From: a virus
Taxonomy: Duplodnaviria; Caudoviricetes
Reading direction: 5' to 3' (one strand)
IMG/VR virus record: IMGVR_UViG_3300044614_001486
Location: 1-37,721 of that record
Length of the DNA stretch: 37,721 bases
The first letter of the stretch is position 1. Every line of letters begins with the position of its first letter. Below are positions 5,227-37,695 of the stretch, one piece after another. The notes below the pieces were generated by a model. It was given only the letters and a program-made list of their open reading frames with translations. It was not told the DNA's origin and ran no database searches. A program made the translations under genes and the position numbers.

Positions 5227-6183
5227 ATGGATCCCGAAATCGAAGAGATCGACCCCGAGTTCGCCGCCGCCTTCAACGAGGGCGAGGACGCCCCGGGCCT
5301 TGGCGCCGGAGCGGGCGATGCCGCCGGCGCCGCCGACGCCGCGGATGGTGGCGAGCTTGGAGACGGCGAGGTCGCTCAGCCGGCCGGCGAGGAGGCCGCT
5401 GTCGCGCCTGCTGCCGCAGCACCGGCGGCCGGCCCCGAGCTCTCACCCGAGGCGCTCGAGCAGCAAGCCCAGAAGCTGCGCTCCTGGGAGGGGCGACTGA
5501 GGGCTCGAGAGGCCGAGATCAGCGGCAAGGCCGCGAAGCCGGCAGCCGGGCAGGACGCCGAGGAGGCGTCGGAGATGCTCGAGGGCGTCGCCGGAGCTGC
5601 GGCCGTCGGCGGGTCCGAGGATCTGGCCCAGGCCGCCAACGCGGCCGCGGAGGCCGTGGAGTCCGGAGAGATGACTCCGGAGCAGGCGATGGCCCAGTTG
5701 TCCGAGGACTTCGGCAACGAGTTCATCGGCATGATCAAGGTGTTGGCCAAGGCCTTCGCCAAAGAGGAGGTCGAGCCCGTCGCCAAGAAAGCTGACGAGC
5801 TGGACACGAAGTTCAACAGCACGGCGGAGCGGGCCCACTTCACCGCGATCGCCGCGCGTCACCCCGACTTCCGCGACGTCGCGCAGTCGCCCGACTTCAA
5901 GGCCTTCCTGGATGGCCTGCCCGATGACGTTCGCGCCGATGCGCAGAACGTCGCCCAGGGCGGCACGGCCGAGGAGGTGATCGATCTGCTGGACGTCTTC
6001 AAGGAGACGGCCGGCAAGAAGCAGGCCCCCGCCGCGGCCGCCCAGCCCTCGCAAGAGGACACTGGCGCCGCCGTCGACGAGGACCTGCAAAGCATGGAAG
6101 GCGTGCGCTCTGGTGGCGTGCGCCTGCCAGAAAAGCCCGCGGCCCCGAAGGACGACTTCGAGGGTGCGTGGGAGGCGTTCTGA
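5227..6183 (+). CDS. capsid scaffolding protein
   Basis: GAGAGGA SD before ATG 5227. Acidic and Ala-rich with a coiled coil; IAARHPDF...SPDFKAFL and C-terminal DDFEGAWEAF; directly upstream of the capsid gene. Confidence 0.78.
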   Translation: MDPEIEEIDPEFAAAFNEGEDAPGLGAGAGDAAGAADAADGGELGDGEVAQPAGEEAAVAPAAAAPAAGPELSPEALEQQAQKLRSWEGRLRAREAEISGKAAKPAAGQDAEEASEMLEGVAGAAAVGGSEDLAQAANAAAEAVESGEMTPEQAMAQLSEDFGNEFIGMIKVLAKAFAKEEVEPVAKKADELDTKFNSTAERAHFTAIAARHPDFRDVAQSPDFKAFLDGLPDDVRADAQNVAQGGTAEEVIDLLDVFKETAGKKQAPAAAAQPSQEDTGAAVDEDLQSMEGVRSGGVRLPEKPAAPKDDFEGAWEAF

Positions 6184-6650
6184 TGGCAACAGTCGCCATC
6201 CGGCTAGAGGACTTGGTGTACGACCAGGATACCGGATTCATCTCCGGCCCGTTCGGTCAACAGAGCACCTGGATCGATCCGGAGGGCAGGGTTCGAGTCA
6301 AGGTTGGTGGCCGCGTCTACTCGGCGCACCGTCTGGCTTGGAGACTGATGTACGGCAAGTGGCCAGAAGGCGAGATTGACCACATCAACGGCAACAAGGC
6401 GGACAACCGGATCTGCAATCTAAGGGACGTCGATCGCTCGACGAACCAACAGAACGCAAAGAAGGCGCAGTCGAACAACAAGTCCGCCGGTCTGCTTGGT
6501 GTTTCTCTCCACAAGTCGCGCAACAAGTTCAGGGCGCAAATCACGTACGACAAGAAGAGGCATCACATCGGCTATTTCGACACCGCTGAGCTTGCTTATG
6601 CGGCGTACCTGAGCGAGAAGCGACGGCGTCACGCCGGCTGCACGATCTGA
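6183..6650 (+). CDS. free-standing HNH homing endonuclease with AP2-like DNA-binding domain
   Basis: TGATG coupling. AHRLAW...EIDHINGNKADNRICNLR (HNH_3), then GVSLHKSRNKFRAQI...IGYFDTAELA (AP2-like). Confidence 0.9.
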   Translation: MATVAIRLEDLVYDQDTGFISGPFGQQSTWIDPEGRVRVKVGGRVYSAHRLAWRLMYGKWPEGEIDHINGNKADNRICNLRDVDRSTNQQNAKKAQSNNKSAGLLGVSLHKSRNKFRAQITYDKKRHHIGYFDTAELAYAAYLSEKRRRHAGCTI

Positions 6651-20175: not shown

Positions 20176-23100
20176 ATGCAAGATCCCATCCTGAGCCTGA
20201 TCGCCGAGTCCGCCAAAGAGCTTGGTGCATCGCAACCGCGTCCCGCCTCCCAGGCCGGCGGCGTCGAGGGATTCGTGCAGCAGTACGGCCCCGTGGCGCA
20301 GCGCGTCGGCGGCAAGATCGGCGTCGAGCCGGCGGTGCTGCTGGGGCAGTGGGGGCTTGAGACGGGCTGGGGGCGCAGCGTCATCCCGGGCACGAACAAC
20401 CTGGGCAACATCAAGGACTTCACCGGCGCCGGCCCGCAGGCCACCGACAACATGACCGGGTCGCGCGACGCGTACCGGGCCTACGAGTCGCCGGACAGCT
20501 TCGGGGAGGACTTCGCGGGCCTGATCGCAAGGCGCTACCGCACGGCGGCCGGATCTGGCTCTGACGCAGGCCGGTACTTCGCCGAGCTCAAGAAGGGCGG
20601 CTACGCGGAAGACCCGGACTACGTCAACAAGGGCGTTGCGGCCGCCAGGATGGCCGCGACCGCGATGGGCGGCAGTCTTGCCGCAGCACCGCCGCAGCAG
20701 CCGACCAGCAGGTTCGGCGGCCCGCGCAGCGAGATGCTCGATCCGCGGCCGCCGGCGCCCACGCGAAGCCGCGGCGTATTCGAGGCCATCAACGACACGG
20801 TCATCGAGTTCGGCAACGCTGTGGCCGGTGCCGCCGGCGCGGTTGGCAGCTTCGTCTCGCCCGGCAATCAGTTCTCTCAGGCCGTTGAAGAGTTCATCCA
20901 GTCCGGCGTCGAGAAGCAGAGCGACGTCGTGCGCGCCGAGAAGGAGCGCCTGGCTGCCGACATGGAGGCCGCCCCGGACGCCAGCGCCGAGGTCACCACG
21001 ATGCTCGGCTACATGGCGCGCAACCCGGCGCTGACAGCGGCCCAGGTTGCCGGCTCCTTTGTGCTGCCCGGCGCGGCCGTCAAGGGCGCGTCGAGCTTTG
21101 CGCAGGCGGTTGGTGTCGGCGCGCGCGGGGCTGCAAGAGCTGGCCTGGCGGGCGGCGCGGTGGCCGGCGCAACCATGGGCGGCGGCGACGCAGCCGGCAC
21201 AGCCTACGAGCTGGTCATGAAGTCCCCGGACGACGTCATTCTGCAGAGCCCCGATGCTCAGCAGCTGATCCGCCAGGGGATCACCGATCCGGCCCAGATC
21301 AAGGAGGCCATCGCCCAGAAGGCGGCCGCCCAGGCGCGCGTGCTGCCAGCGATCCTTGGCGCCGCCACCGGCGTCATCGGCGCCGAGCGCCTGCTGGCCG
21401 GCCTGCCTGGCGCCGGCCGCACCCGCGTCGGCAACGCGCTCGCCACCGGCGGCATCGAGGGCAGCACCGAAGCCGTCGAAGAGGCGGCCACCGTCATCGA
21501 GGGCCAGCGCGCCGCGGCGCAGTACAACCCCGAGATCGACTCGACCAAGGGCGCTGCCGGAGCGGCGACCATGGGCTTCGTTGGCGGCGCTGGCGTCGGC
21601 GCCGTCGCCGGGGCGCTGCAGTCGCCCGAGATGGCCCCCGTCATCCAGAAGGCTCAGGAGCCCAACAGCCCGCTGTCGAAGTCGGCCGTCGCTGGCACGG
21701 CGGCGTCTCCGCCTGTGGCGCCCGTGGCCCCGCCCGACCCAGCCGCCCGCCTAGCCGAGCTTGAGGCCATCGGCCAGCAGGGCGGCATCTTCACGCCCGA
21801 GCAGCGCAAGGAGTACGAGGCGCTCAATGCTTCGCGCGAGGCCACGCCGGGCGCCCAGCCCGACGAGATCGCCCCGCGCCTCGCCGCCATCAAGTCCGCC
21901 CTCAACCCGGGCGTGCTCGACGCCCTGCGCGCCGAGGGCTCCGACTACACCGCGAAGGACCTGCTCAAGGACCTGGCCGTCGCCTCCAGCAAGAGCGCCC
22001 AGCCGACCGCGCGCGAGCAGGCCCTGACCCGCATCGAGACCGGCCTGCAGTGGGCCGGCGCGAACCCGGCGCCCACGGTCGAGCCGAACATCGACGAGAT
22101 CACCGGCGCCACGCAGGGCGATGTGCGCCAGCCTGGCGCGCGCCCTGGCATCGGCCAGCTCCGCACCGGCGTGGATCGCGACGCAGCCCTGACGGCGCGC
22201 GCCCAGCAGGCCGGCACCCAGTTCGAGCGCGACCAGATTAACGCCCAGCGCAAGACGAACCTGGAGATGCGCCTCGGCGCCAGGCCGGCCAACAGCGCAC
22301 AGGCTGTCGGCGGCGAGAACAGGCCTCAGGCTGTAACGCCGGCCGAGCAGGCGCGCCTCGAGGCCGCCGCCCTTGGTGGCCAGGTCGATGCCAGCAAACG
22401 CCAGGACGAACCGCGCCAGGCCGTGATCGACCGCGCCCTGCGCAACGTCGAGGAGCGCGGCGGCGTGGCCAGCCCGGCCGAGGCGCAGATCTTCGCCGAG
22501 GCCGGCCTGGGCAAGCCCTACGACCGCATCGACGAGAGCCTGGCGCCGCCGCCGTCCACCGACGAGCGCCTGACGCAGGCCACGGGCATCGCCCTGGGCC
22601 GCCGGCCGCGCGAGACGGTGGTGCCGGGCCGGCAGGACGTCGCCGCCCAGGCCGCCGCCGAGCAGCAGGCCCGCAGCGACAGCCGCATGAAGCGCCTGGC
22701 CGAAGAGCGCGCCGCCGCGGCCGCCAAGCGCGACCAGGCGCAGCCCAAGGCGCCCGCCGGCGCGCCGCCGGCCGACGACGTGATCGCCGCGCTGAAGACC
22801 ATCCCCGCGCTGCGCACCGCCGAGCAGAAGGCCGTGGTCGACGCCGCCCGGGCGCGCATGACCGCCGAGCAGATGCGCGTTCTGCAGGACGCTGCGGTCA
22901 ACCCGGCCAACCTGAGCGCCACCGACAAGCTGCAGCTGCAGCAGATGCGGGAGCCTCGTCGGTCAGCCGAGAGGGCGCCGTGGCGCGAAGGTGAGACCAA
23001 CACGCTTGAGCAAGACGGCGCCACCATCGAGTACAACGTGCTCGACGACAAGGTGACGATCAACGACGCGGCCGTCCGCCCCGAGAGCCGCGGCCGCGGC

Positions 23101-24561
23101 GCCTTCCGGCGCGCCATGCAGTCCCTGCTTGCGCGTGCAGACGAGGCCGGCCTGCCGGTTGAGCTGATGGCGTTCGACGCCACAGGCTTCTCTGATGACG
23201 CGCGCCTTGAGCGCTTCTACGAGTCGCTCGGGTTCCGCACCGTCGGCAGGGACGATGGTGCCGCCATCATGCGCCGGCAGCCGTCTGCGGCCACCAAGTC
23301 AGCTGAGCGCGCCTCTTCAGCACCTGCTGAAACTGCGCCGCGCAGTGAAGCCGGCAGCCCAGCCGAACCCGCAGTCATCCGCAAGCGCCGCCGCCAGCTC
23401 GACGCCCTGGCCGACCAGGGCTACGAGACCGTCGAGCGCCGCGACGGCGTGTTCTTCATTCGCAATTCGCGAACCGGCGACGAGGTCCGCCTGAGCGGCC
23501 GCGCCGATGCCGCCCTGGCGCGCGCCGCGGTCAAGGCCATGGTCGACGCGCGCGCGCATGCCGCGGCCACGAGCCCGCAGAACGACCGCAAGGAGCCGAC
23601 GCCGGCGCAGAAGGCGGCCGGTAACTACAAACTCGGCATGCTTCGGTTCGATGGACTGGACATCGCCATCGAGAACCCCGAGGGCAGCGTTCGAAGCGGC
23701 ACGGACCGCGGCGGCAAGAAGTGGTCCGTTCGCATGAAGGCCCACTACGGCTATATCCGCCGAACCCTTGGCGCCGATGGCGACGGCGTGGACATCTACT
23801 TGCACGCATCGCCGACGGCCGGCGCCCCGGTGTTTGTCATCGATCAATACAACGATGACGGCACGTTCGATGAAACCAAATCGGTCGTCGGCGCTCAAAG
23901 TCGAGACGAGGCCATCCGCATCTACGACGCGCACTTCTCCGACGGATCCGGGCCGCGCCGCCGGGGCGATGTGACGCAGATGTCTGTCGACGAGTTCAAG
24001 TCGTGGGCTCGGTCGCCGGGGTACAACAACTGGCGAAAGGCGAGAAGTCGCTGCGCAGATCCCAAGGACCAGGCGTACCGGGAGTACGGGGCGAAGGGGA
24101 TCAAGATGAACGAGGAGTGGGCGGAGAGCTTCGCGGCGTTTCTGCGGGACGCGGGGCCGAGGCCGACTCCGGCGCACTCCCTGGATCGAATCAAGGGGGA
24201 CAAAGGGTACGAGCCGGGCAACGTACGCTGGGCAACCAGGATGGAGCAGAGTCAGAACAGGCCGGGCTTCGTGCACGCGCTGACGCACCGCGGCAAGACG
24301 ATGACATTGGCGGAGTGGGCTCGCGAGCTGGGAATTCCGGCCGGTCGGATCTACAAGAGGGTGCAGCAGGGCCTTTCGGCGAGCGAAGCCCTCGAGCCCG
24401 GCTTGATGCCTCGGGGGGCGCCTCCGCGCAACCTAACTCTGGACGGCGAGACGCTTCCACTCAAGGCGTGGGCGCGCAAGGTGGGGATTCATCCCGATAC
24501 GCTGCGGAAGCGCCTGGACAAGGGGATGGAGTTGCGTCAGGCGCTAATCAAGCCGGCGTAA
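20176..24561 (+). CDS. giant ejection/polyvalent protein A: GH73 (FlgJ-like) muramidase, Gly/Ala membrane region, GNAT, InPase-like domain; in this frame it runs into an HNH-type endonuclease
   Basis: GQWGLETGWG...NNLGNIK...GGYAEDPDY (about 20260-20640); GNAT VRPESRGRG...LERFYESLGF (about 22975-23280); AGNYKLG...IENPEGSVRSG...HYGYIRRTLGADGD (about 23560-24005). Confidence 0.85.
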   Translation: MQDPILSLIAESAKELGASQPRPASQAGGVEGFVQQYGPVAQRVGGKIGVEPAVLLGQWGLETGWGRSVIPGTNNLGNIKDFTGAGPQATDNMTGSRDAYRAYESPDSFGEDFAGLIARRYRTAAGSGSDAGRYFAELKKGGYAEDPDYVNKGVAAARMAATAMGGSLAAAPPQQPTSRFGGPRSEMLDPRPPAPTRSRGVFEAINDTVIEFGNAVAGAAGAVGSFVSPGNQFSQAVEEFIQSGVEKQSDVVRAEKERLAADMEAAPDASAEVTTMLGYMARNPALTAAQVAGSFVLPGAAVKGASSFAQAVGVGARGAARAGLAGGAVAGATMGGGDAAGTAYELVMKSPDDVILQSPDAQQLIRQGITDPAQIKEAIAQKAAAQARVLPAILGAATGVIGAERLLAGLPGAGRTRVGNALATGGIEGSTEAVEEAATVIEGQRAAAQYNPEIDSTKGAAGAATMGFVGGAGVGAVAGALQSPEMAPVIQKAQEPNSPLSKSAVAGTAASPPVAPVAPPDPAARLAELEAIGQQGGIFTPEQRKEYEALNASREATPGAQPDEIAPRLAAIKSALNPGVLDALRAEGSDYTAKDLLKDLAVASSKSAQPTAREQALTRIETGLQWAGANPAPTVEPNIDEITGATQGDVRQPGARPGIGQLRTGVDRDAALTARAQQAGTQFERDQINAQRKTNLEMRLGARPANSAQAVGGENRPQAVTPAEQARLEAAALGGQVDASKRQDEPRQAVIDRALRNVEERGGVASPAEAQIFAEAGLGKPYDRIDESLAPPPSTDERLTQATGIALGRRPRETVVPGRQDVAAQAAAEQQARSDSRMKRLAEERAAAAAKRDQAQPKAPAGAPPADDVIAALKTIPALRTAEQKAVVDAARARMTAEQMRVLQDAAVNPANLSATDKLQLQQMREPRRSAERAPWREGETNTLEQDGATIEYNVLDDKVTINDAAVRPESRGRGAFRRAMQSLLARADEAGLPVELMAFDATGFSDDARLERFYESLGFRTVGRDDGAAIMRRQPSAATKSAERASSAPAETAPRSEAGSPAEPAVIRKRRRQLDALADQGYETVERRDGVFFIRNSRTGDEVRLSGRADAALARAAVKAMVDARAHAAATSPQNDRKEPTPAQKAAGNYKLGMLRFDGLDIAIENPEGSVRSGTDRGGKKWSVRMKAHYGYIRRTLGADGDGVDIYLHASPTAGAPVFVIDQYNDDGTFDETKSVVGAQSRDEAIRIYDAHFSDGSGPRRRGDVTQMSVDEFKSWARSPGYNNWRKARSRCADPKDQAYREYGAKGIKMNEEWAESFAAFLRDAGPRPTPAHSLDRIKGDKGYEPGNVRWATRMEQSQNRPGFVHALTHRGKTMTLAEWARELGIPAGRIYKRVQQGLSASEALEPGLMPRGAPPRNLTLDGETLPLKAWARKVGIHPDTLRKRLDKGMELRQALIKPA

Positions 24562-27500
24562 CGCCGGCACTTTCCGTCGATCCCGACCGCGCGCCTGGCA
24601 CCACCTTCACCGTCCGCATGGACGGCAAGAACGTCGAGTTCAAGCGGGCCGACGTGTCGCAGCTCGCCGAGACCGAATCGCCCGAGCGCGATGGCAAGGC
24701 CCGCCGCATCAGCCGCAAGTCCGCAGCACTCATCAGCGCCATCGGCGCGGCGATGGGCAAGCGCGTGCAGTTCTTCGAAGACGTCAACGGCGAGCGCCCG
24801 GGCGACGGCTTCGTGAGGCCAGCCGACCCCGACACCATCTACCTGAACACGGTGTCGACGATCAACCCGCTGTCCGTCTTCGGGCACGAGTTCCTGCACA
24901 CGCTGCGCCAGACCAACCCGCAGGCCTGGGACGCCATCGCGGCTGTCGTGAAGACGCGCGTGAAGAACCCCAAGGGCTTCCGCCGCGACTACTACGGCGC
25001 CGAAGAGGCCGATGCCCGCGGCGACGGTGCGCTGAGCGAAGAGCGCGACGGCGAGCTCGAGGAGCTGGTCTCCGACCTCGGCGGCAACTTGATGGCCGAT
25101 CAGTCCTTCTGGCGCGAAGTATTCGCAAAAATCTATGCCGACAACGGCAAGGACGCCAAGGGCACCATCGCCCGCCTGATCGCGCAGCTGCAGGGCCTGA
25201 TCGACATGGCCGTGGCCGCAGTGAAGGGCCCGCGCTTCCGCGCAGACCGCTTCATCAGCGACATGGATGCCATCAGGGCGGCCTACCGCGACGGCCTGGC
25301 GGCTTACCTCAAGGAGAGCGGCAAGTCGAAGGCCGGGATGCAGGCGGAGGTGCTGCGCTCGGTAAATGGCGTGTCCATGAGTCCGGCCCGAAAGACCGAC
25401 GACAAAACGATTTATTGGCACGGGTCTCCAAGCGGCGACTTAAGGGGCGGTTCAACTGGCCTTCACCTTGGAACCAAGCTCGCCGCAACGCAGGCGCTAG
25501 AGGCTCGAATTGGAGTTCCAGCGACCGGAGAGTGGGACGGCGCCCGAGAGTATGGGTCAACCCTTCTGGCTGGAAAGAAGACGCTCAAGCGCCTGCAAGA
25601 GGAGCGCGGCTACTTCCTGACCACCGGCCTAAACGCCGGTTCGCGAGGCAACCCGGTCCCGGATGAAGACTACCTGCCGCAAGTTGAGTTGAAGTATGCC
25701 GACGGCACGCCAATGCCAATGAGCGTTCGCCCCAGTGTTCGCCCTTTCAGACTCAACACTGAGATGTCGAATTTCAAGTTCCAGCCGCATGAGGACTTCA
25801 AGGCCAATGGGTACATGTCCGCAGCCAAGAAGCGCGGAACGGCTCGTCGCGGCTACTACTACAGCAATGTCGCTGAAGACAGCGGCAGTATCTCTGTCGT
25901 GGTGCCGGATGGCAGTCATGTCACGCCCGTGGACGACAGTGAGGTCACCAAGTCCCCCGAGCGCGGCATCCACTTCAGCAAGAAGCAGCTCACCGCCATC
26001 AACGGCGCCTACTACGGCACCGGCCTGAAGGGCCTCGAGGCCGAGCGCCTGGCGCTGAGCGATGACCCGCGCCTCAAGACCCGCGTCTACTTCTACGTGG
26101 ACGAGGGCAATGGCGTGCGCCCCGAGGCTGGCGTCGGCGGCTACGCGCACGAGGTCGAGCTGCCGAAGCTCTACGACGCCAAGGCCAACGCCGAGAAGCT
26201 CTGGAACAGCGGCGACCTGAACGGCACCGAGAGCCGCATCCTCGATGCCGGCTACGCGGGCTACTTTGTCAAGAAGCACGAGACCGGGCAGGGCTTCGCG
26301 GTCGTCATCGGCGACGCGGCCAAGAGCATGCCGGCCAAGCCCATCGCGAACCCGAAGATCGCCGGCCCGATCTCGACCGGTGTGCCCGAGACCATCAAGG
26401 CCGCTCCGAGCTCGAAGGAGATCGACCTCATCGATGTGGGCAACATCCCTGGCGCCACGCTGCGCGCGGGCATGCTGCGCTTCCCGGCCGACAGCCGCGA
26501 ACAGGCCAACGCCGAGATGGCGCGCATCGGCTCCGACCTGCGCTTCAGCAAGGAGCGCCTGTCGACGCCGGCCGAAGAGGTGGCCGCGGTGCGCAAGCAG
26601 TACGAGGGCACCGACAAGTGGCTCAAGGCGCCAGACGGCACCGCTACGCGCTTGACTGAACGCCAGTGGCTGCACGTTCGTACGCCGAGCTTCAAGAAGT
26701 GGTTTGGCGACTTTGAGAAGTTCGCCGGCCGCCGAGGCGGGGTCTGGGCCGACGACAAGGGCGAGGTCTCCAAGGTCGTCGGCCGCAACGGCGAGCCGCT
26801 GGTCGTTTACCACGGCACCGACAAGGGCGGCTTCAGCGAGTTCTCGCGGCCCGGCGGAAGCCAGCGCGGAGACCTTGGCATCTTCACGACTGACGAGCGA
26901 GGCGTGGCGCGCACATACGTGCACCGCGGCCGCGCGCGCGACATTGGCCCTGGCGACATCGAGGAGGACGGCGAGTATCGCGACCCGGTGGCTGGCATCT
27001 ACGCCCTCTTCATCAACATCCGCAACCCGCAAGAGTCTGACTTCGAGGGCGCCAACTGGGACGGCAGCCGCAACGGCCAGTACATGGTCGTCGACGACGA
27101 CGGCGAGCAGCTCTACGCCGACGACGGCCGCGGCTACTTCGAAGACCGCGACGACGCCTTTTCTCTGGTAATGAGCAAGGGCGGCAACATCGAGCCGGCC
27201 CAGGATCACTACGAGACCACTGACAGCGTGGTGCGCGAAGCTCGTCGCAGCAAGAACGACGGCGCCATCATTCGCCAGGTGACGGACGATGGCGGTGGCG
27301 GCGGCGGCTGGTACGAGGCATCCGACGTCTTCGTGGCTTTCGAGCCCAACCAGGTCAAGAGCGCCGACTTCAACGACAGCACGTACAGCGCCGATGAGGA
27401 TGACATCCGCCGCAGCGCTGTTCGCGACGTAACTGAGGCGCCCGAGTTCAAGCGCTGGTTCGGCAACTCGAAGGTGGCGGACAGCCGGGGCCGGCCTCTG

Positions 27501-30287
27501 GCGGTGTACCACGGCAGCGGCTCTCCAAACATCCGAAGTTTCAGGCGGGGAGTTGATGGGGCCGGCTGGTTCTCTGAGTCCCCAGGGCTGGCTAGTCAAT
27601 TTGCCGAGGAGGGCGGCGGCGGACGAGGGGACACCGTCTACCCCGTCTACCTCGCGCTGCAAAACCCTCTCGACGTGAACACGCCGGAGGGCAGGGCCAT
27701 CATGGCTCAGGCCAACAATGACCGGCCAGGGCTTTCGACTGAAGAGCAGCTGAGCCCGCTCGGGTACGACGGAGTGATCGCAAATGAGGGAGGGGGGCGA
27801 GTCACATACCTCGCATTCCGCCCCGAGCAGATTAAGTCCGTCTTTAACCGCGGCACCTTCGACGCCACCGATCCGGACATCACGCGCAGCGTTGCGCGCG
27901 AGCCGCGTGAGCGTGTGCACGGATTTGAAGTCAGCACGCGCGAGCCGTACGCCAAGCCGACGAAGGACTTCGCGCCAGAAGACTCTCGACGCGACCTGCT
28001 GATCAGCGACTTTGCCTCGGGCCTTGGCCAGAGCAAGTGGCTCTCAGCCGTGTCGGAGCTGGTCGAAGGCTACCCGAACTACCGCGCCGCCGCGACCGCC
28101 AACGCGCCCGAGAAGAAGCTCGAGCGCACGGTTCGCCAGATGGTCGAGAACCTGCTGTGGCTGCACGACCAGGTGCCAGCCGACACGCGCAACCGCAGCA
28201 AGCTGTGGTACGACGGCGCCAGGGCGATCGCCGAGCGCTGGTCTCGTAAGTACAGCATCAGCGACGCGCAGGCTGCCGGCATCCTGGCCGTGCTGAGTCC
28301 GCAGAAGGACTGGTTCATGAATGTGAGCCTGGCCAACCGCGTAGCGGACATCATGACCGACCGGCAGGCCTTCCGCTGGTCGAAGCAGATGGACGAGACC
28401 TCCGCCAGGATCTTCGGCAAAGAGGCCTACCAGGAGGACATCGACGCGATCCGCGGCCAGACGCTGCAGGACCTTGATGACGCCTACCTGCGCGCGATGT
28501 GGCTCCGCGTCTACGACCAGGCTCACAACCCGAGTTCGTTCTACATCGTCTCGCCGGAGGGTGACTTCGTGGCCGAGGCGCGCACGAAGGACGGCACGCT
28601 CGGCCGCGTCGCGTGGGGCGGCAACAGCACCATCGCGAAGGCTGTCTCTGTCTTCGACAACGGGTCGTTTGAGAACATCAGCGCGCAGCTTGGCCGCAAG
28701 CACAAGGTTCGCAACTTCTACAACAACATCCTCGTGCCGAACAGCCCGAACGGGCACGTCACGATCGACACGCACGCTGTGGCGGCCGCGCTGCTGCGAC
28801 CGCTTTCTGGCAATTCGATCGAGGTGATGCACAACTTCGGCGGCCCGAAGAGCGCGCACGCAGGCCTCGAAGGGACGTACGCACTCTACGAGGAAGCCTA
28901 CCGCCGCGCAGCCGCAGAGCGTGGCATCCTGCCGCGTGAGATGCAGTCGATCGCCTGGGAGGCTGTGCGCGGCCTGTTCGTGCCCACCTTCAAGGCCCAG
29001 CGGCGCAACGTCGAAGCAGTCGACGGCGTGTGGACCCAATTCCAGAAAGGACGCCTGAGTTATGAAAACGCCCGAAAACAAGTCCTCGAACTTGCTGGAG
29101 GCATTGAAGCCCCTAGCTGGGCGGGACGCGACCCTGGCGCGTATGTTGAAGATGAACCGGCCGCTGACGATGGAGACCTGGCTGCGGATGGAGTACCCGC
29201 AGGGGATTCCGCGGCTGACGGCGGAGATTCTGGCCGGCGTGCCGGCGCCTCTGCGCGCCGCAGCCGAGCCCGAGACGGAGAGCGAGGGGATGAGGGCCGA
29301 AGCCTTGCGCCGCTTGCGGGCGCGCCGTCTATCGCAGGCGCAACCGGCCCCGACCCGCGACTCGTCGAAGTAGCCGAGCGGTACGCCGCCAGCAGGGGCA
29401 TCCAGCTCCGTCGCCAGGCGGAGTACGTCAAGGTCGACCCCGAGCGCGCCAAGCGCATCGCCGAGGCCTACGACGCGATGCCGCACGCGCCGCAAGACCC
29501 CGCGGTCAAGGCTGCGTACCAAGACCTCATCCAGCAGACGCGCGCGCAGTACGACGCCCTGGTGGGCGCGGGCTACAAGTTCTGGTTCATGGACCCGGAA
29601 GCCGACCCGTACGCCGGCAACCCGTGGAACGCGATGCGCGACCTGCGCGCCAACCAGCGCATGGCCGTCTTCCCGACCGCGGCCGGCTTCGGCACGAGCG
29701 ACTTCGACCCTGCGGCCAACCCGCTACTGGCCGACGCCGGCCTGGAGTGGGGCTTCGGCTCGCCGGACGGCCAGAAGAAGCGCGTGCTGGTCAACGATTT
29801 GTTCAGGGCAGTTCATGACGCCTTCGGTCACGGCCTGGAGGGCGCCGGCTTCCGCGCCGACGGAGAAGAAAACGCCTGGCAGGCCCACGTCCGGCTCTTC
29901 ACGGGCCCCGCGGTGGGCGCCATCACCAGCGAGACCCGCGGCCAGAATTCGTTCTTGAACTACGGCCCCCACGGCGAAAAGAACCGCACGGCCAAGGTCG
30001 CGGACACGGTCTTCGCCGATCAGAAGACCGGTCTCATGCCCGATTGGACCTGGACCGAGGGCCGCGCCGAGGATGCGGTTCAAGGCCCGTCTGCGCCGCC
30101 TTCGCCGCCCGCCGACCTGGTGAAGATCTTCGAAGACATGCGCAGCTCTCCCGGGGCCCGCAAGTCCGCAAAGGCGGCCGCCGCGGCGCACCCGCTTTCG
30201 GCCAAAATCCAAGAGATCGAGCGCGACTTCTTGGACATCCTCGACGAGCTTGAGACGTCACAAGTTCTGGGCATCAACTGCGACTAA
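24003..30287 (+). CDS. giant polyvalent protein B (start uncertain): HExxH zincin-like peptidase, four ART-like domains, helical glycosylase-like domain, HDxxGH domain
   Basis: GHEFLH (His at 24885-24899); YWHGSP, GIHFS, LVVYHGT and LAVYHGS modules with FK(K/R)WFG and Q(V/I)KS; WYDGA...LSPQKDW...KVRNFYNN...VTIDTH; FRAVHDAFGH (HDAFGH at 29814-29831). No clear SD at GTG 24003 or ATG 24618. Confidence 0.85.
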   Translation: MGSVAGVQQLAKGEKSLRRSQGPGVPGVRGEGDQDERGVGGELRGVSAGRGAEADSGALPGSNQGGQRVRAGQRTLGNQDGAESEQAGLRARADAPRQDDDIGGVGSRAGNSGRSDLQEGAAGPFGERSPRARLDASGGASAQPNSGRRDASTQGVGAQGGDSSRYAAEAPGQGDGVASGANQAGVTPALSVDPDRAPGTTFTVRMDGKNVEFKRADVSQLAETESPERDGKARRISRKSAALISAIGAAMGKRVQFFEDVNGERPGDGFVRPADPDTIYLNTVSTINPLSVFGHEFLHTLRQTNPQAWDAIAAVVKTRVKNPKGFRRDYYGAEEADARGDGALSEERDGELEELVSDLGGNLMADQSFWREVFAKIYADNGKDAKGTIARLIAQLQGLIDMAVAAVKGPRFRADRFISDMDAIRAAYRDGLAAYLKESGKSKAGMQAEVLRSVNGVSMSPARKTDDKTIYWHGSPSGDLRGGSTGLHLGTKLAATQALEARIGVPATGEWDGAREYGSTLLAGKKTLKRLQEERGYFLTTGLNAGSRGNPVPDEDYLPQVELKYADGTPMPMSVRPSVRPFRLNTEMSNFKFQPHEDFKANGYMSAAKKRGTARRGYYYSNVAEDSGSISVVVPDGSHVTPVDDSEVTKSPERGIHFSKKQLTAINGAYYGTGLKGLEAERLALSDDPRLKTRVYFYVDEGNGVRPEAGVGGYAHEVELPKLYDAKANAEKLWNSGDLNGTESRILDAGYAGYFVKKHETGQGFAVVIGDAAKSMPAKPIANPKIAGPISTGVPETIKAAPSSKEIDLIDVGNIPGATLRAGMLRFPADSREQANAEMARIGSDLRFSKERLSTPAEEVAAVRKQYEGTDKWLKAPDGTATRLTERQWLHVRTPSFKKWFGDFEKFAGRRGGVWADDKGEVSKVVGRNGEPLVVYHGTDKGGFSEFSRPGGSQRGDLGIFTTDERGVARTYVHRGRARDIGPGDIEEDGEYRDPVAGIYALFINIRNPQESDFEGANWDGSRNGQYMVVDDDGEQLYADDGRGYFEDRDDAFSLVMSKGGNIEPAQDHYETTDSVVREARRSKNDGAIIRQVTDDGGGGGGWYEASDVFVAFEPNQVKSADFNDSTYSADEDDIRRSAVRDVTEAPEFKRWFGNSKVADSRGRPLAVYHGSGSPNIRSFRRGVDGAGWFSESPGLASQFAEEGGGGRGDTVYPVYLALQNPLDVNTPEGRAIMAQANNDRPGLSTEEQLSPLGYDGVIANEGGGRVTYLAFRPEQIKSVFNRGTFDATDPDITRSVAREPRERVHGFEVSTREPYAKPTKDFAPEDSRRDLLISDFASGLGQSKWLSAVSELVEGYPNYRAAATANAPEKKLERTVRQMVENLLWLHDQVPADTRNRSKLWYDGARAIAERWSRKYSISDAQAAGILAVLSPQKDWFMNVSLANRVADIMTDRQAFRWSKQMDETSARIFGKEAYQEDIDAIRGQTLQDLDDAYLRAMWLRVYDQAHNPSSFYIVSPEGDFVAEARTKDGTLGRVAWGGNSTIAKAVSVFDNGSFENISAQLGRKHKVRNFYNNILVPNSPNGHVTIDTHAVAAALLRPLSGNSIEVMHNFGGPKSAHAGLEGTYALYEEAYRRAAAERGILPREMQSIAWEAVRGLFVPTFKAQRRNVEAVDGVWTQFQKGRLSYENARKQVLELAGGIEAPSWAGRDPGAYVEDEPAADDGDLAADGVPAGDSAADGGDSGRRAGASARRSRARDGERGDEGRSLAPLAGAPSIAGATGPDPRLVEVAERYAASRGIQLRRQAEYVKVDPERAKRIAEAYDAMPHAPQDPAVKAAYQDLIQQTRAQYDALVGAGYKFWFMDPEADPYAGNPWNAMRDLRANQRMAVFPTAAGFGTSDFDPAANPLLADAGLEWGFGSPDGQKKRVLVNDLFRAVHDAFGHGLEGAGFRADGEENAWQAHVRLFTGPAVGAITSETRGQNSFLNYGPHGEKNRTAKVADTVFADQKTGLMPDWTWTEGRAEDAVQGPSAPPSPPADLVKIFEDMRSSPGARKSAKAAAAAHPLSAKIQEIERDFLDILDELETSQVLGINCD
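24007..24561 (+). mobile_element. HNH-type homing endonuclease coding segment fused in frame to protein A and overlapping ORF B in another frame
   Basis: YNNWRKARSRCADPKDQAYREYGAKGI...SLDRIKGDKGYEPGNVRWAT, followed by two HTH repeats (TLAEWARELGI, PLKAWARKVGI). Confidence 0.85.
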
Positions 30288-31196
30288 TCCATGGCACAGA
30301 CCTGCACCTACAGCTTCACCGCCCCCGATGGCAAGAAGACCGTCCTTACCGGCCAAGCGGCCTTCAAGGCCTGGCTCGTGGCGGGTGGGCTGGAGTACCT
30401 GCGGGGGGCGGCGAATGATGCGCGGTCGAGCGCCGAGCGTGATTTGCAGTACCCACTGGCGCCGGCCGGCGAGCGCTACGAAGAAACCGGCATCAAGCCG
30501 CGGATGATGTCTCCCGACGAGTTCTTGGCCAGCGTGCGCCCGCTGGACATCGACGGCGCATCTCGCGACAACATCGAAGACCTGAAGCAGCACATCCTGT
30601 CGGGGCGCAAGCTCGACCCTCTGCACATCCGCAGCGATGGCAAAGAGGATGGCAGGCATCGGGCGGTGGCCGCCAAGGAGCTTGGCATCAAGCTGGTGCC
30701 GGTGATCGACGAACGCGGCGGCGCCCGAGCTAGCCGCGCGCGCGACGTCACGGAGACGCCTGAGTTCAAGCGCTGGTTTGGCGACAGCAAGGTGGTGGGC
30801 GCCGATGGTAGGCCGCTGGTTGTGTACCACGGGACCAATGCGGACTTTGATGCGTTCAAGACCGGCTTGAACAAGGCTTCTGGCGAGCGCGGCATCTTCT
30901 TTTCTCCAGACCCCGCTGTGGCTGCTGCCTACGCTGGCGTTGATCCGGAAGGAAACTTCAACGCTCCCGAGATTGGCAGCGTGATGCCGGTTTTCCTGTC
31001 GCTACAGAACCCGCTTGTCGTGGACTTTAAGGGCGACCGGCTAGGGCGCGTTGCAGCGATCAAGCGCGCACGCGATGGCGGCCACGATGGGGTGATTCTG
31101 AAAAATCACTACGATGCTGGTGGCGTGCAGGATCAGTACGTCGCCTTCCGCCCAGAGCAGATCAAGAGCGCCACCGGCAACCGCGGCACCTTCGAC
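27444..31196 (+). repeat. dispersed exact repeats at the ends of two ART cassettes
   Basis: GAGTTCAAGCGCTGGTT at 27444-27460 and 30762-30778; AACCGCGGCACCTTCGAC at 27846-27863 and 31179-31196. Confidence 0.8.
29062..29373 (+). CDS. nested small gene (103 aa) overprinted in the +1 frame of polyvalent protein B
   Basis: AAAGGA at 29046-29051, 10 nt before the ATG. Protein-like sequence (DATLARMLKMNRPLTMETWLRMEYPQGIP). The host frame turns into a D/G/A linker with A/T-ending codons over the same span. Confidence 0.65.
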   Translation: MKTPENKSSNLLEALKPLAGRDATLARMLKMNRPLTMETWLRMEYPQGIPRLTAEILAGVPAPLRAAAEPETESEGMRAEALRRLRARRLSQAQPAPTRDSSK

Positions 31197-37100: not shown

Positions 37101-37190
37101 CGCGACCAGGTGCGCGCCATCGAGGAGCGCATCACGGCGCGGATGGCGTCTCTGAACCGGGCCGTCGAGGCGCTCGGCGCTACGCGTTGA
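30291..37190 (+). CDS. giant polyvalent protein C: three ParB/Srx-like domains, three ART-like domains, EELQSD domain, LPD38-like C-terminal region
   Basis: EDGRHR, LDGNHR and LEGAHR ParB-like motifs; TPEF..WF...YHG...QIKS ART-PolyVal-like modules; YYSQL...LFVEELQSD; HYVPLMR, VNFNRKG, YVSIPMPLG, TENRDWQGRPI. Confidence 0.88.
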   Translation: MAQTCTYSFTAPDGKKTVLTGQAAFKAWLVAGGLEYLRGAANDARSSAERDLQYPLAPAGERYEETGIKPRMMSPDEFLASVRPLDIDGASRDNIEDLKQHILSGRKLDPLHIRSDGKEDGRHRAVAAKELGIKLVPVIDERGGARASRARDVTETPEFKRWFGDSKVVGADGRPLVVYHGTNADFDAFKTGLNKASGERGIFFSPDPAVAAAYAGVDPEGNFNAPEIGSVMPVFLSLQNPLVVDFKGDRLGRVAAIKRARDGGHDGVILKNHYDAGGVQDQYVAFRPEQIKSATGNRGTFDPNDPDIRRSVERKLAGGEPIRLYHGSDVEIKQFDKTKARTAKHIYLTDQEETARKYGDKLMRVEAKPKNMLWLGPEDIGPRETKALRRVFADIGEDYGYEDFDTFLETVTGATGELYGANSRFQDALMDELFAAGYDAVAFPDPVPGGGWSMSYVFDDPALLTVRGDDGLSQGDAGRDIRRSAERDANFGGAYLDSTLRRAREQFRTSFGVDFGQRLTRDYEMVDVGTLEPSNDVDEGRVDELVVAMFNESPFDSKIPPIFIDSEGNILDGNHRVEAAKRAGLSSVPAFELYDADEGPQIIRSTERPWYYSQLARAIEGVPARLDNMAAPQWAQWLKANASKLGVKQDEITWSGIEDFLRLKGKEKVSKEEIGAYLAEGGVRVEEVTSPVGKSIGVSDFSQYTLPGGTAYREVLLTLPEPKRDLSPYEKDIVVRRKDTGVYDFEATYKTPGGRELRGVGDTEEEARAGVRSLLAMMQFTEPASYRSSHWDQKNVLAHVRLNDRVDAEGRRTLFVEELQSDAGADVRKKGFIDSYKLEDVQPTDGPLPDTFYYLKTPDNVFQIPKSRHASEQAAREYIVREKKINSGGVPRMPFIDDTTKWLNLALKRVIAMAATEGYDAVAFVNGEQSADRYDLSKQVDELVWSRSDDKYSLTARNRIDGVSQKIADDVPEGRLEDYVGKEIAKKIVAERGKRWTATYRGLDLKVGGEGMKAFYDKIVPQAASALVKKMGGEGMTKVTLPGADATPLDSYRVGDDGNGGYAVIWRATGEQVSSGHATRAEAKAEMVKIADSDPVIAPAFLITDEMRDKASGGMPLFSRERAIALPMAGDKVDGLVVRDGVPNYGSIEASLTNYEVLPGIREVPFDLFSGPDPQTARTRKLAADIEESGEIAPLIVVFDGEDHYILEGAHRFDALQHIGKKSFPAKVVVDKSGAGDARLSRERDPRTETPEFRAWFKRSKVTASGRAGGVPRVVYHGTGDDFSKFDPRMVDGFSAIAEGFYFTSSPYEAEQYGDVLMPVYLSLQNPAPKSVWDPMARAIARGETDSAEVRERLQSMGYDGIAGSDDMASELDTKVYVAFWPTQIKSAIGNDGSYDETDPSILSSAARNWESPGASKFDDVVYKMQNRQVDLLRVQQAIQEAGKQISEDANTYLREELFHGRAAKRTQDFTKRELEPLTEEMAKRGLTLEELDEYLHARHAPEANRLIAERNPDSPLLQDGGSGLDTALAQQYMSDLAADKKAHLEAVAAMVDKILAKTRQLMVDYELESRDTVKGWGEMFQHYVPLMREDDGDAPQRLGSGQGYSIKGREVKSRTGSTKKVVDVFANIAMQRERVIVRGEKNRVGQALVNLARDNENRDFWTVDLAPTTPTYDPKKGVVVQRPDPMYKMRPNVVVAKFREEDGSVKEHAVIFNEGNARAMRTAAVMKNLEMDRLEGLLGASAVVTRYFAAISTQWNPVFGVVNFIRDFQNVLINLNGTPLDGKQSQVAKEAWGMTKAIWTNLRSGKLDTERQKLWDEFQSVGAQTGFRQMFADSKDRADDIRSAINPDYWMDSKLGKVFTANGVLKVPVSKASKVVRAGFQALSDYNETLENSMRLAVYKVAKESGMSIENAASLAKNASVNFNRKGQVAQQAGALFAFYNAASAGTARLGELLFTMEPGQIKTLRLSRVGKRIVAGGVMIGVMQALALAAAGYGEDDPPQFMRERSIIIPTFDGRYVSIPMPLGLHVLPNIGRVATEWAMGGLDKTPERVVGMLGMFADAFNPIGNAGMSMQTIAPTALDPLVALTENRDWQGRPITRESMNPATPGHALARDTATSWAIAIAKGVNTLTGGNDYVAGAISPSPDQVDYLIGQLTGGVGREISKLEQTITATVTGEELPIFKVPLVGRFGGNTASQASEGSNFYGNVKRLNELETEIKGLQQDGKASEAAQLRASRPDAYLIAQANRAERDISKLRKEKSRLVKEGAPRDQVRAIEERITARMASLNRAVEALGATR

Positions 37191-37695
37191 GCGGATGGCC
37201 GGCGTGCAGCTTGAGACGCGCGGACTGCGCGAAGCATGCGGCATCGAGAAGCGTGTAGAAGGCCTTGCGAACCCTGCCGCCCGGCACCTGGATCTGAACA
37301 AACCACTGGCGATTGCCGCGTCCGAGGAAGTAGACGTTGCGGCAGCCGGTGCTCAGGTTGTTGACCTGGGCGCCGCGCCGGTTCTGGCCGTTCTCAACCT
37401 TGTCTGAGCGCCGCAGGTTGGCCCACCTGTTGTCGCTCTTGATGTGATTGACGTGGTCGATGCACTCCGGCGGTCGCTCGCCGGTCATCATGATCCAGAT
37501 CACGCGGTGCGCCAGCAGCAGCCTCTTGTCCAGGCGCACAACGGTGTACCCGGAGCGCTGCCTGCAGCCAGCTTCGCTGCCGGCGCGGCCAGTGCTTGAG
37601 ACGTTGCGCCGCCAAGTGAGGCGGCCGGTCTCTGGGTTGTATTCCAGCGCCTCCAGCAGGCGCTCTCTTGAAGGGTACTCGACAGTCTTTGGCAT
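37180..37695 (-). CDS. free-standing HNH homing endonuclease (convergent)
   Basis: LEYNPETGRLTW, AHRVIW...IDHVNHIKSDNRWANLR, AP2-like tail; its stop overlaps the stop of protein C. Confidence 0.88.
   Translation of the reverse strand: MPKTVEYPSRERLLEALEYNPETGRLTWRRNVSSTGRAGSEAGCRQRSGYTVVRLDKRLLLAHRVIWIMMTGERPPECIDHVNHIKSDNRWANLRRSDKVENGQNRRGAQVNNLSTGCRNVYFLGRGNRQWFVQIQVPGGRVRKAFYTLLDAACFAQSARLKLHAGHPLNA

Follow-up and report, generated by a model that had tools for sequence, protein, structure and literature searches.

Out-of-frame HNH insertions hidden inside another gene have been reported from mycobacteriophage DNA methylases, as exemplified by the ShiLan domain and Pacc40 gp60 (Arsenault, Gosselin and Gogarten 2025, PMC11855218). 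Phage polyvalent proteins with InPase, ART-PolyVal and LPD38 domains were described separately and predicted to be packaged in virions (Iyer et al. 2017, PMC5512222); in the accessible part of that paper the single mention of HNH concerns GmrSD, and nested genes are not mentioned. The locus analysed here lies in the IMG/VR virus record IMGVR_UViG_3300044614_001486 (positions 1–37,721; this whole stretch is called the window), a 37.7-kb phage record of 66% GC in which portal/adaptor, capsid, tail and internal virion genes are followed by three giant open reading frames (ORFs), A, B and C, with an HNH endonuclease sequence at the junction of A and B. The best explanation of this arrangement, with a probability of about 0.8, is that the record lacks 58 nt, and that A and B form one virion polyvalent protein of 3389 aa with a 190-aa HNH gene wholly inside its coding sequence, in the +1 frame.

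As far as the available text of the ShiLan study goes, the two systems share an HNH gene of about 190 aa whose whole length lies within an open host ORF, without signs of an intron or intein, and a host-frame reading predicted to fold poorly, and both are known from sequence; the patchy distribution reported for ShiLan may have a counterpart here (PMC11855218). ShiLan itself is described there as using the third frame, with zinc fingers and without a detectable ribosome-binding site (a leaderless start was proposed), and as inserted among conserved residues of a non-essential methylase (PMC11855218). In the present case, by contrast, the HNH gene uses the +1 (second) frame and has an Asp-Arg/Tyr core, two helix-turn-helix (HTH) modules and Shine-Dalgarno (SD)-like sites; its hosts are giant virion polyvalent genes, the insertions lie mostly at domain boundaries, the family is far wider, and there is a link to InPase. 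Since the two differ in reading frame, in the build of the enzyme, in the start signal and in the host gene, this is not the ShiLan domain itself. No methylase-nested HNH appeared among the matches listed (40 of 428 and 60 of 481; the ShiLan HNH sequence itself was not compared), while the Tiff81 HNH was matched at 39.7%. What is new relative to ShiLan is another HNH type, frame and host gene, the breadth of the family and the InPase link, the principle having been published in 2025. No literature on hidden HNH genes in polyvalent proteins or beside InPase was found, most subscription papers being outside the search.

The junction of ORF A and ORF B

The features of the locus are as follows.

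20176–24015 (+): ORF A part of the giant polyvalent gene, with glucosaminidase (aa 39–154), GNAT (950–1020) and InPase (1144–1278) domains
23605–24009 (+): InPase domain (Pfam PF18823, ORF A residues 1144–1278), a putative homing target
24010–24015 (+): junction at which 58 nt are absent; an imperfect 6-nt repeat (1 mismatch) stands on either side of the missing piece
24012–24573 (+): host-frame reading of the HNH DNA, a G/A/D/R/S/Q-rich spacer without Cys, His or Trp, predicted to be disordered
24016–24561 (+): nested HNH endonuclease, codons 10–190 and stop, in frame +1 relative to the host gene; PHROG 3377
24034–24039 (+): CGA AAG (HNH codons 16–17), present, not conserved, with no role needed
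24574–30287 (+): ORF B part, with a HExxH zincin-like motif, ART-PolyVal and DUF7178

With several conflict domains in one giant polypeptide encoded among virion genes, the host gene has the make-up of a polyvalent protein, and its domains and setting are like those in the accessible account of these proteins (PMC5512222). The HExxH motif of ORF B was read from the sequence and has no Pfam match. As written in the window, ORF A (nt 20176–24561, 1461 aa) runs from InPase directly into the HNH and stops at nt 24561, and the −1 frame relative to it is stop-free from nt 23874, open over nt 23874–30287 and continuous with ORF B. The initial annotation had described both facts correctly, and proposed that ribosomes shifting by −1 at CGA AAG make an A-B fusion while unshifted ribosomes make an A-HNH fusion. 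Neither proposal is supported, as the offset of the frames and the fusion both stem from the 58-nt gap in the record. Its own alternative, that a deletion or assembly indel had fused a nested HNH to A, is borne out by an additional 58 nt in four of six sequencing runs.

Contigs from six (X1–X6) of the 21 listed runs were compared with the window; X3–X6 belong to four other studies, and X1 and X2 may be the source sample of the window. In X1, X3, X4 and X5, one contig aligns in two pieces, which end at nt 24015 and restart at nt 24010 with one mismatch. The pieces are separated by 52 letters of the contig records (6782/6835, 565/618, 188/241 and 196/249), giving a net gain of 58 nt. X6 has a loose end of 61 letters behind nt 24015, and X2, which has no bridging contig, contributes a piece that begins at nt 24014 with three letters unaligned, as the long form predicts. 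The junction of the window itself was found in 0/6 runs, including X1 at a depth of 35.7, as judged from contigs, which drop rare variants.

The missing piece supplies the tail of InPase, HNH codons 1–9 and, ahead of the HNH, an in-frame stop, together with AGGAG, which resembles an SD site. Thirty of the 52 letters were read directly, and the number of the other 22 is accounted for by the N-terminus of P0124, a near-identical 190-aa HNH from public assemblies in which nine residues precede the Pro-Gly-Tyr of the window. In frame A, the first 30 letters encode ten residues that complete the conserved InPase tail (Trp, seven residues and Lys-Pro in relatives), which is cut off at the window junction; they also hold AGGAG, with the HNH-frame stop just behind. 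The sum of 30 + 1 + 21 letters (seven codons) is exactly 52, and places the ATG 6 nt behind AGGAG. Since 58 = 1 mod 3, A comes into frame with B, and the two would likely be continuous in the full-length genome as a 3389-aa protein.

Relatives have the layout expected of such a gene, and the check suggested in the initial annotation, whether A and B are one ORF elsewhere, was answered positively in L001 and P0001. In L001, A and B share one frame, with 3158 codons open across the locus; a module that we take to be ParB-like from its DGHHQ motif (no Pfam match) stands in place of InPase and HNH, and similarity to the window resumes at nt 24574. The blocks that the window shares with L001 are spaced differently in the two, by 588 nt (196 codons) when the 58 nt are included and by 530 nt when they are not (by arithmetic). 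P0001 (2985 aa, the sole match of the protein search) has InPase, a 52% identical spacer and B in one ORF. Its spacer can be co-encoded in +1 with the HNH P0003 at 150/150 positions, while shuffles gave about 106 clashes.

The nested HNH gene and its relatives

Once the 58 nt are restored, the HNH is a separate 190-aa gene with its own SD-like site, and the match to PHROG 3377 has an E-value of 1e-51 over nt 24004–24558. The product has an Asp-Arg/Tyr type core, two predicted HTH modules and one Cys, and R67, Y74, W81, Q87 and N90 are invariant in 12/12 HNH sequences. The predicted model has the beta-beta-alpha arrangement of a His-Me finger (E64–67, E79–82, H84–90), and AlphaFold confidence (pLDDT) reached 84.6 in the HNH (12 rows), compared with 45.4 in the host-frame spacer (7 rows). 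The best structural match was PacI, a restriction-type dimer. The spacing of R67 and Y74 equals that of Arg93 and Tyr100 of PacI in the available description of that enzyme (PMC13139853); differences are the weak structural scores and that HNH activity is a prediction here. The last HTH module matched the DNA-binding domain of I-TevI (Z 3.9) and I-HmuI (Z 3.1), both of which differ in being intron-encoded.

The initial annotation rightly pointed to a linker frame devoid of Cys, His and Trp and to G-ending HNH codons. These residues are absent over nt 24003–24560, unlike in control shadow frames, and third positions are 55% G and 28% C in the HNH, while the host gene has 34% G and 51% C there. 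Across nested copies, host-frame Cys, His and Trp contents are 0, 0.2 and 0.2% (2.0, 5.4 and 1.6% in control shadows) and third-position G is 53.5% (controls, 37.7%). The openness of the −1 frame over the HNH exceeds chance (P = 0.022 under host codon usage, 0.0007 with its own synonymous codons shuffled), although −1 shadow frames of 150–290 codons are common in this 66% GC genome. Codons where a third-position T would create a host-frame stop were taken as at-risk sites, and in the visible window HNH no such stop is made (0/38). In seven nested copies, with the non-nested L134 set aside, T occurs at 0/233 at-risk and 91/744 safe sites (p = 7e-12), and at 0/195 at-risk and 73/651 other sites without the window copy; 26 high-GC control HNHs have T at 88/770 and 463/2663 sites, respectively. 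Over 21 pairs, identity averaged 49.7% in the HNH frame and 31.0% in the host frame, the HNH frame being more conserved. Both frames appear to be under selection, and both would be translated, probably without splicing. The HNH is likely translated from its own ribosome-binding site, and the host frame likely reads through the HNH DNA as a disordered spacer. The cassette would survive in a probably needed virion gene because G-ending codons, and no T before AA, AG or GA, keep the host frame open and hydrophilic. The earlier idea that overprinting on a linker lets the endonuclease persist with neither intron nor intein is backed by nesting, stop avoidance and the absence of an Rfam match.

A search of three collections with an HNH-frame motif returned nine loci, seven of them distinct, and in 6/7 of these motif-selected loci the HNH is nested in +1 with the host frame open. 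Four (L127, L128, L129 and L132; L129 is the same as L130, Paracoccus hibiscisoli) have ORFs with at least 740 codons before and at least 1200 after the motif, whereas L131 (a Rubrivivax metagenome-assembled genome) and L135 are nested but end at a contig edge or lie on a short contig. The seventh, L134, is a free-standing HNH of other architecture. In every nested HNH an ATG or GTG is preceded by a purine-rich stretch, with a clear SD in most; the second suggested check, whether relatives have a nested HNH with its own start, was likewise answered positively. A complete HNH ORF in another frame, with no host-frame stop, is present in full in P0001 and the six loci and, with 22 nt unread, in this phage; no intron or intein was detectable.

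As a baseline, 98 HNH copies in fetched loci were inspected. Four had an open −1 frame, and a single copy lay in a frame open for more than 1000 codons on both sides, this being L048 (= L127), itself a family member. An open −1 frame also covers the HNH in L073 (two copies) and L063, but there is no giant ORF, and these were set aside as ordinary neighbours or high-GC chance. In a sample of 800 genomes from two bacterial families, six further HNH matches were found in five genomes, none of them nested (0/6). In the cultured Ralstonia phages GP4 and Gamede, a related HNH lies in +1 within the annotated DarB-like gene, without a coding sequence (CDS) annotation of its own in the records inspected, and the three relatives compared out of 54 records (Gervaise, Gerry and RPZH6) have a ParB-like module at that place.

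An exact 21-nt search of viral contigs gave no matches, a host-frame alignment search of metagenome contigs gave 433 pattern matches with 0 confirmed, an N-terminal HNH motif matched nothing, and a longer core motif returned only the same three viral contigs. Plasmid matches were all below 60% identity. A word-index search with spacer alignment among longer proteins gave one protein, P0125 (1578 aa, LPD38, from NCBI/Logan); its residues about 205–390 form an HNH-shadow-like spacer, known from the protein sequence. HNH matches were also listed under DNA polymerase genes.

A profile of seven spacers identified 254 clusters at E ≤ 0.001 among 1.84 billion representatives, and details were obtained for the best 150 of these. 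Sixty-two of the best 150 have at least 1000 aa and 36 have fewer than 400 aa, some of the latter probably being miscalled shadows of free HNH genes. The HNH core motif could be encoded in +1 (≤1 mismatch) in 138/150, against 2/150 shuffles, a protein-level comparison that is partly circular. InPase, LPD37/38/39 or RadC domains occur in 17/20 profile matches scanned. InPase is present in 51 of the best 150, and the spacer directly adjoins it in 50/51, beginning 12–38 aa behind InPase in 39, whereas in the other 11 it lies ahead of the domain and ends at most 80 aa from it. Counting only spacers downstream of InPase, 24 of the 34 InPase proteins longer than 1000 aa have one adjoining the domain. 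Dozens of related giant proteins likely hold similar hidden genes, often adjoining the same enzyme domain.

Alternative explanations

The programmed −1 frameshift at CGA AAG, with A-HNH as the unshifted product, can be given almost no credence. The hexamer is in frame and rare (2 in-frame occurrences in 8504 codons), was correctly located at nt 24034–24039 with GGGG at nt 24018–24021, upstream of the only Cys codon of ORF A (nt 24052), and is the −1 shift site of B. subtilis cdd and of IS1222 in the available part of the source (PMC5009743). A shift is needed, however, only for the short form, which was seen in 0/6 runs. CGA AAG is kept at that position in 0/6 nested relatives, nor is it kept in the closest relative, P0003, which has Gln-Lys there, and relatives read A and B in one frame. 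Unlike cdd and IS1222, the locus thus has neither a conserved shift site nor genomically offset frames, and there is no second frame to reach; because this assembly lacks 58 nt found in other assemblies, the shift is not needed. A true split gene, in which a stop among the 22 unread letters ends A, the HNH is an ordinary gene and B has its own start, is very unlikely. Those letters are unread, and the clade does split the giant gene elsewhere, at the B/C junction; against this, none of the 38 at-risk codons makes a stop in the visible HNH and P0001 is open at the same codons. The initial annotation had also noted that B has no evident SD, and no SD-like site was found before ATG 24618, its start candidate; that Met is likely internal because similarity to L001 begins 44 nt upstream, at nt 24574. 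Removal of the HNH segment by splicing of RNA or protein is extremely improbable. Phage HNH genes are often found in group I introns or inteins according to the accessible text of the ShiLan study (PMC11855218), yet only about 12 nt separate the HNH stop from resumed host similarity, no Rfam family or intein Pfam match was found, and intein chemistry would find neither Cys nor His in the host frame. If the segment were removed from the RNA, it would also be pointless for selection to act on the host frame.

That the short form is a real minority deletion, produced by slippage between the imperfect 6-nt repeats rather than by assembly error, has a low but real probability; it bears on how the record arose and is compatible with a nested HNH in a continuous A-B gene. 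The repeat flanks the gap on both sides and the contigs of X2 and X6 break close to the site, while no aligned contig, including those of X1 at depth 35.7, contains the deletion, though contigs cannot show absence. Such a variant would likely be defective, since an A-HNH fusion would be made and B left without a start.

With the nested gene taken as the preferred explanation, its function may be considered. The best-fitting mechanism is homing: the HNH may cleave rival alleles within or close to the InPase-coding DNA during co-infection, the cassette then being copied into the cut allele by recombinational repair; we place this slightly short of even odds. Free-standing homing endonucleases adjoin a conserved gene which they cut, and the position of the spacer next to InPase in 50/51 proteins suggests a homing target. 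A nested HNH without homing on InPase, whether in a tolerant linker, as one old joint insertion or as a useful accessory nuclease, is somewhat less probable but a serious contender. It gains from the other insertion places, from other small genes nested in the same giant gene, and from a quick tree of 84 InPases in which HNH-adjacent ones cluster more than in shuffles and one origin is possible. It is opposed by the occurrence of the spacer on both sides of InPase (39 behind, 11 before), by the 24/34 proteins above 1000 aa with the spacer downstream, by the finding that 0/45 independently found InPase loci have the HNH motif behind the domain, and by the at least 12 changes that the HNH-adjacent InPases need on that tree (support low). 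More tentatively, splice-free homing endonucleases might be widespread as dual-coding spacers of giant phage virion proteins, target the adjoining conserved InPase DNA and, through cleavage of rival alleles, drive the domain swapping (InPase plus HNH versus a ParB-like module, for instance) behind the mosaic make-up of polyvalent proteins.

Several points weigh against a nested HNH in a continuous A-B gene and against its homing on InPase. For the junction, 22/52 letters were not read and a host-frame stop is possible there at two codons (we infer that there is none), the evidence consists of contigs, and the protein search brought up no entry for the full 3389-aa product. For the enzyme, the match to PacI is weak (Z 5.3, rmsd 3.2, 76 residues aligned; HNH residues 1–91), and neither Foldseek against the Protein Data Bank (PDB) nor a PDB sequence search gave a significant match. 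Control HNHs are likewise mildly depleted of T at at-risk sites (odds ratio 0.61), and the stop-avoidance count is partly conditioned on openness because L134 (8/34 at-risk T) was left out. For homing, some nested members lie elsewhere, behind a ParB-like domain (directly so in L128 and L131) or in plain linkers, the InPase tree is compatible with one origin, and no close relative was found that has InPase with the site empty; L001 lacks InPase as well as the HNH of the window.

Other nested genes and implications

Two further features of the giant genes are listed here.

29062–29373 (+): second nested ORF in B, 103 aa, frame +1, with an SD-like site and 61% G-ending codons; near-identical in L001 (8309–8620)
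30291–37190 (+): ORF C, 2299 aa, next gene of the polyvalent cluster, with ART-PolyVal, ParB and LPD38

No Pfam family was found for the 103-aa ORF (nt 29062–29373), and no sigma-70-type promoter within nt 23500–24800. Two further HNH_3 genes of the window, at nt 6168–6650 (+) and 37180–37695 (−), are apparently free-standing. ORF B ends in Ile-Asn-Cys-Asp-stop, and ORF C, which shares its frame, begins 3 nt on and has Cys at residue 5 but no clear SD (nt 30270–30293). This junction recurs in L152, and P0001 has the same ending; it is a conserved split, possibly disulfide-linked or read through.

The giant gene of L001 contains two other hidden HNHs. One is a 552-nt in-frame insertion (L152, G803:C1 9305–9799), a +1 nested HNH inside a conserved block that is absent from the window, which provides a clean filled/empty pair; in its host frame a similar Gly-Glu-His motif lies close to each end, much as ShiLan is reported to have similar ends. 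The other is an antisense HNH_3 nested in the giant ORF at 5590–6315 (−), with the host frame open, and is absent at the matching place of the window. In two phage groups that are not related, an HNH-bearing cassette occupies the place where relatives have one and the same ParB-like (DGHHQ) module, as seen in nt 23539–24573 of the window versus 2164–2668 of L001, and by L139 versus L141–L143. The Ralstonia phage DarB-like gene also holds a conserved nested +1 ORF of about 107 aa (L141, 2081–2473; L142, 1829–2221; L143, 2413–2805), and in L143 (phage RPZH6) a partially duplicated ParB-like module at about 1300–1900 splits this gene into two annotated CDS.

The locus also cautions that what looks like a convincing recoding site can stem from a small gap in a single assembly. 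Since a concrete candidate target, the InPase DNA, can be named, homing is directly testable. Some of the 'low-complexity linkers' of phage giant proteins are unannotated genes, as the nested HNHs of GP4 and Gamede illustrate. A little-tested third way of life for selfish endonucleases, with neither intron nor intein, was known from a few methylases of mycobacteriophages; the findings extend it to many giant virion proteins and add sequence-level evidence of selection on both frames.

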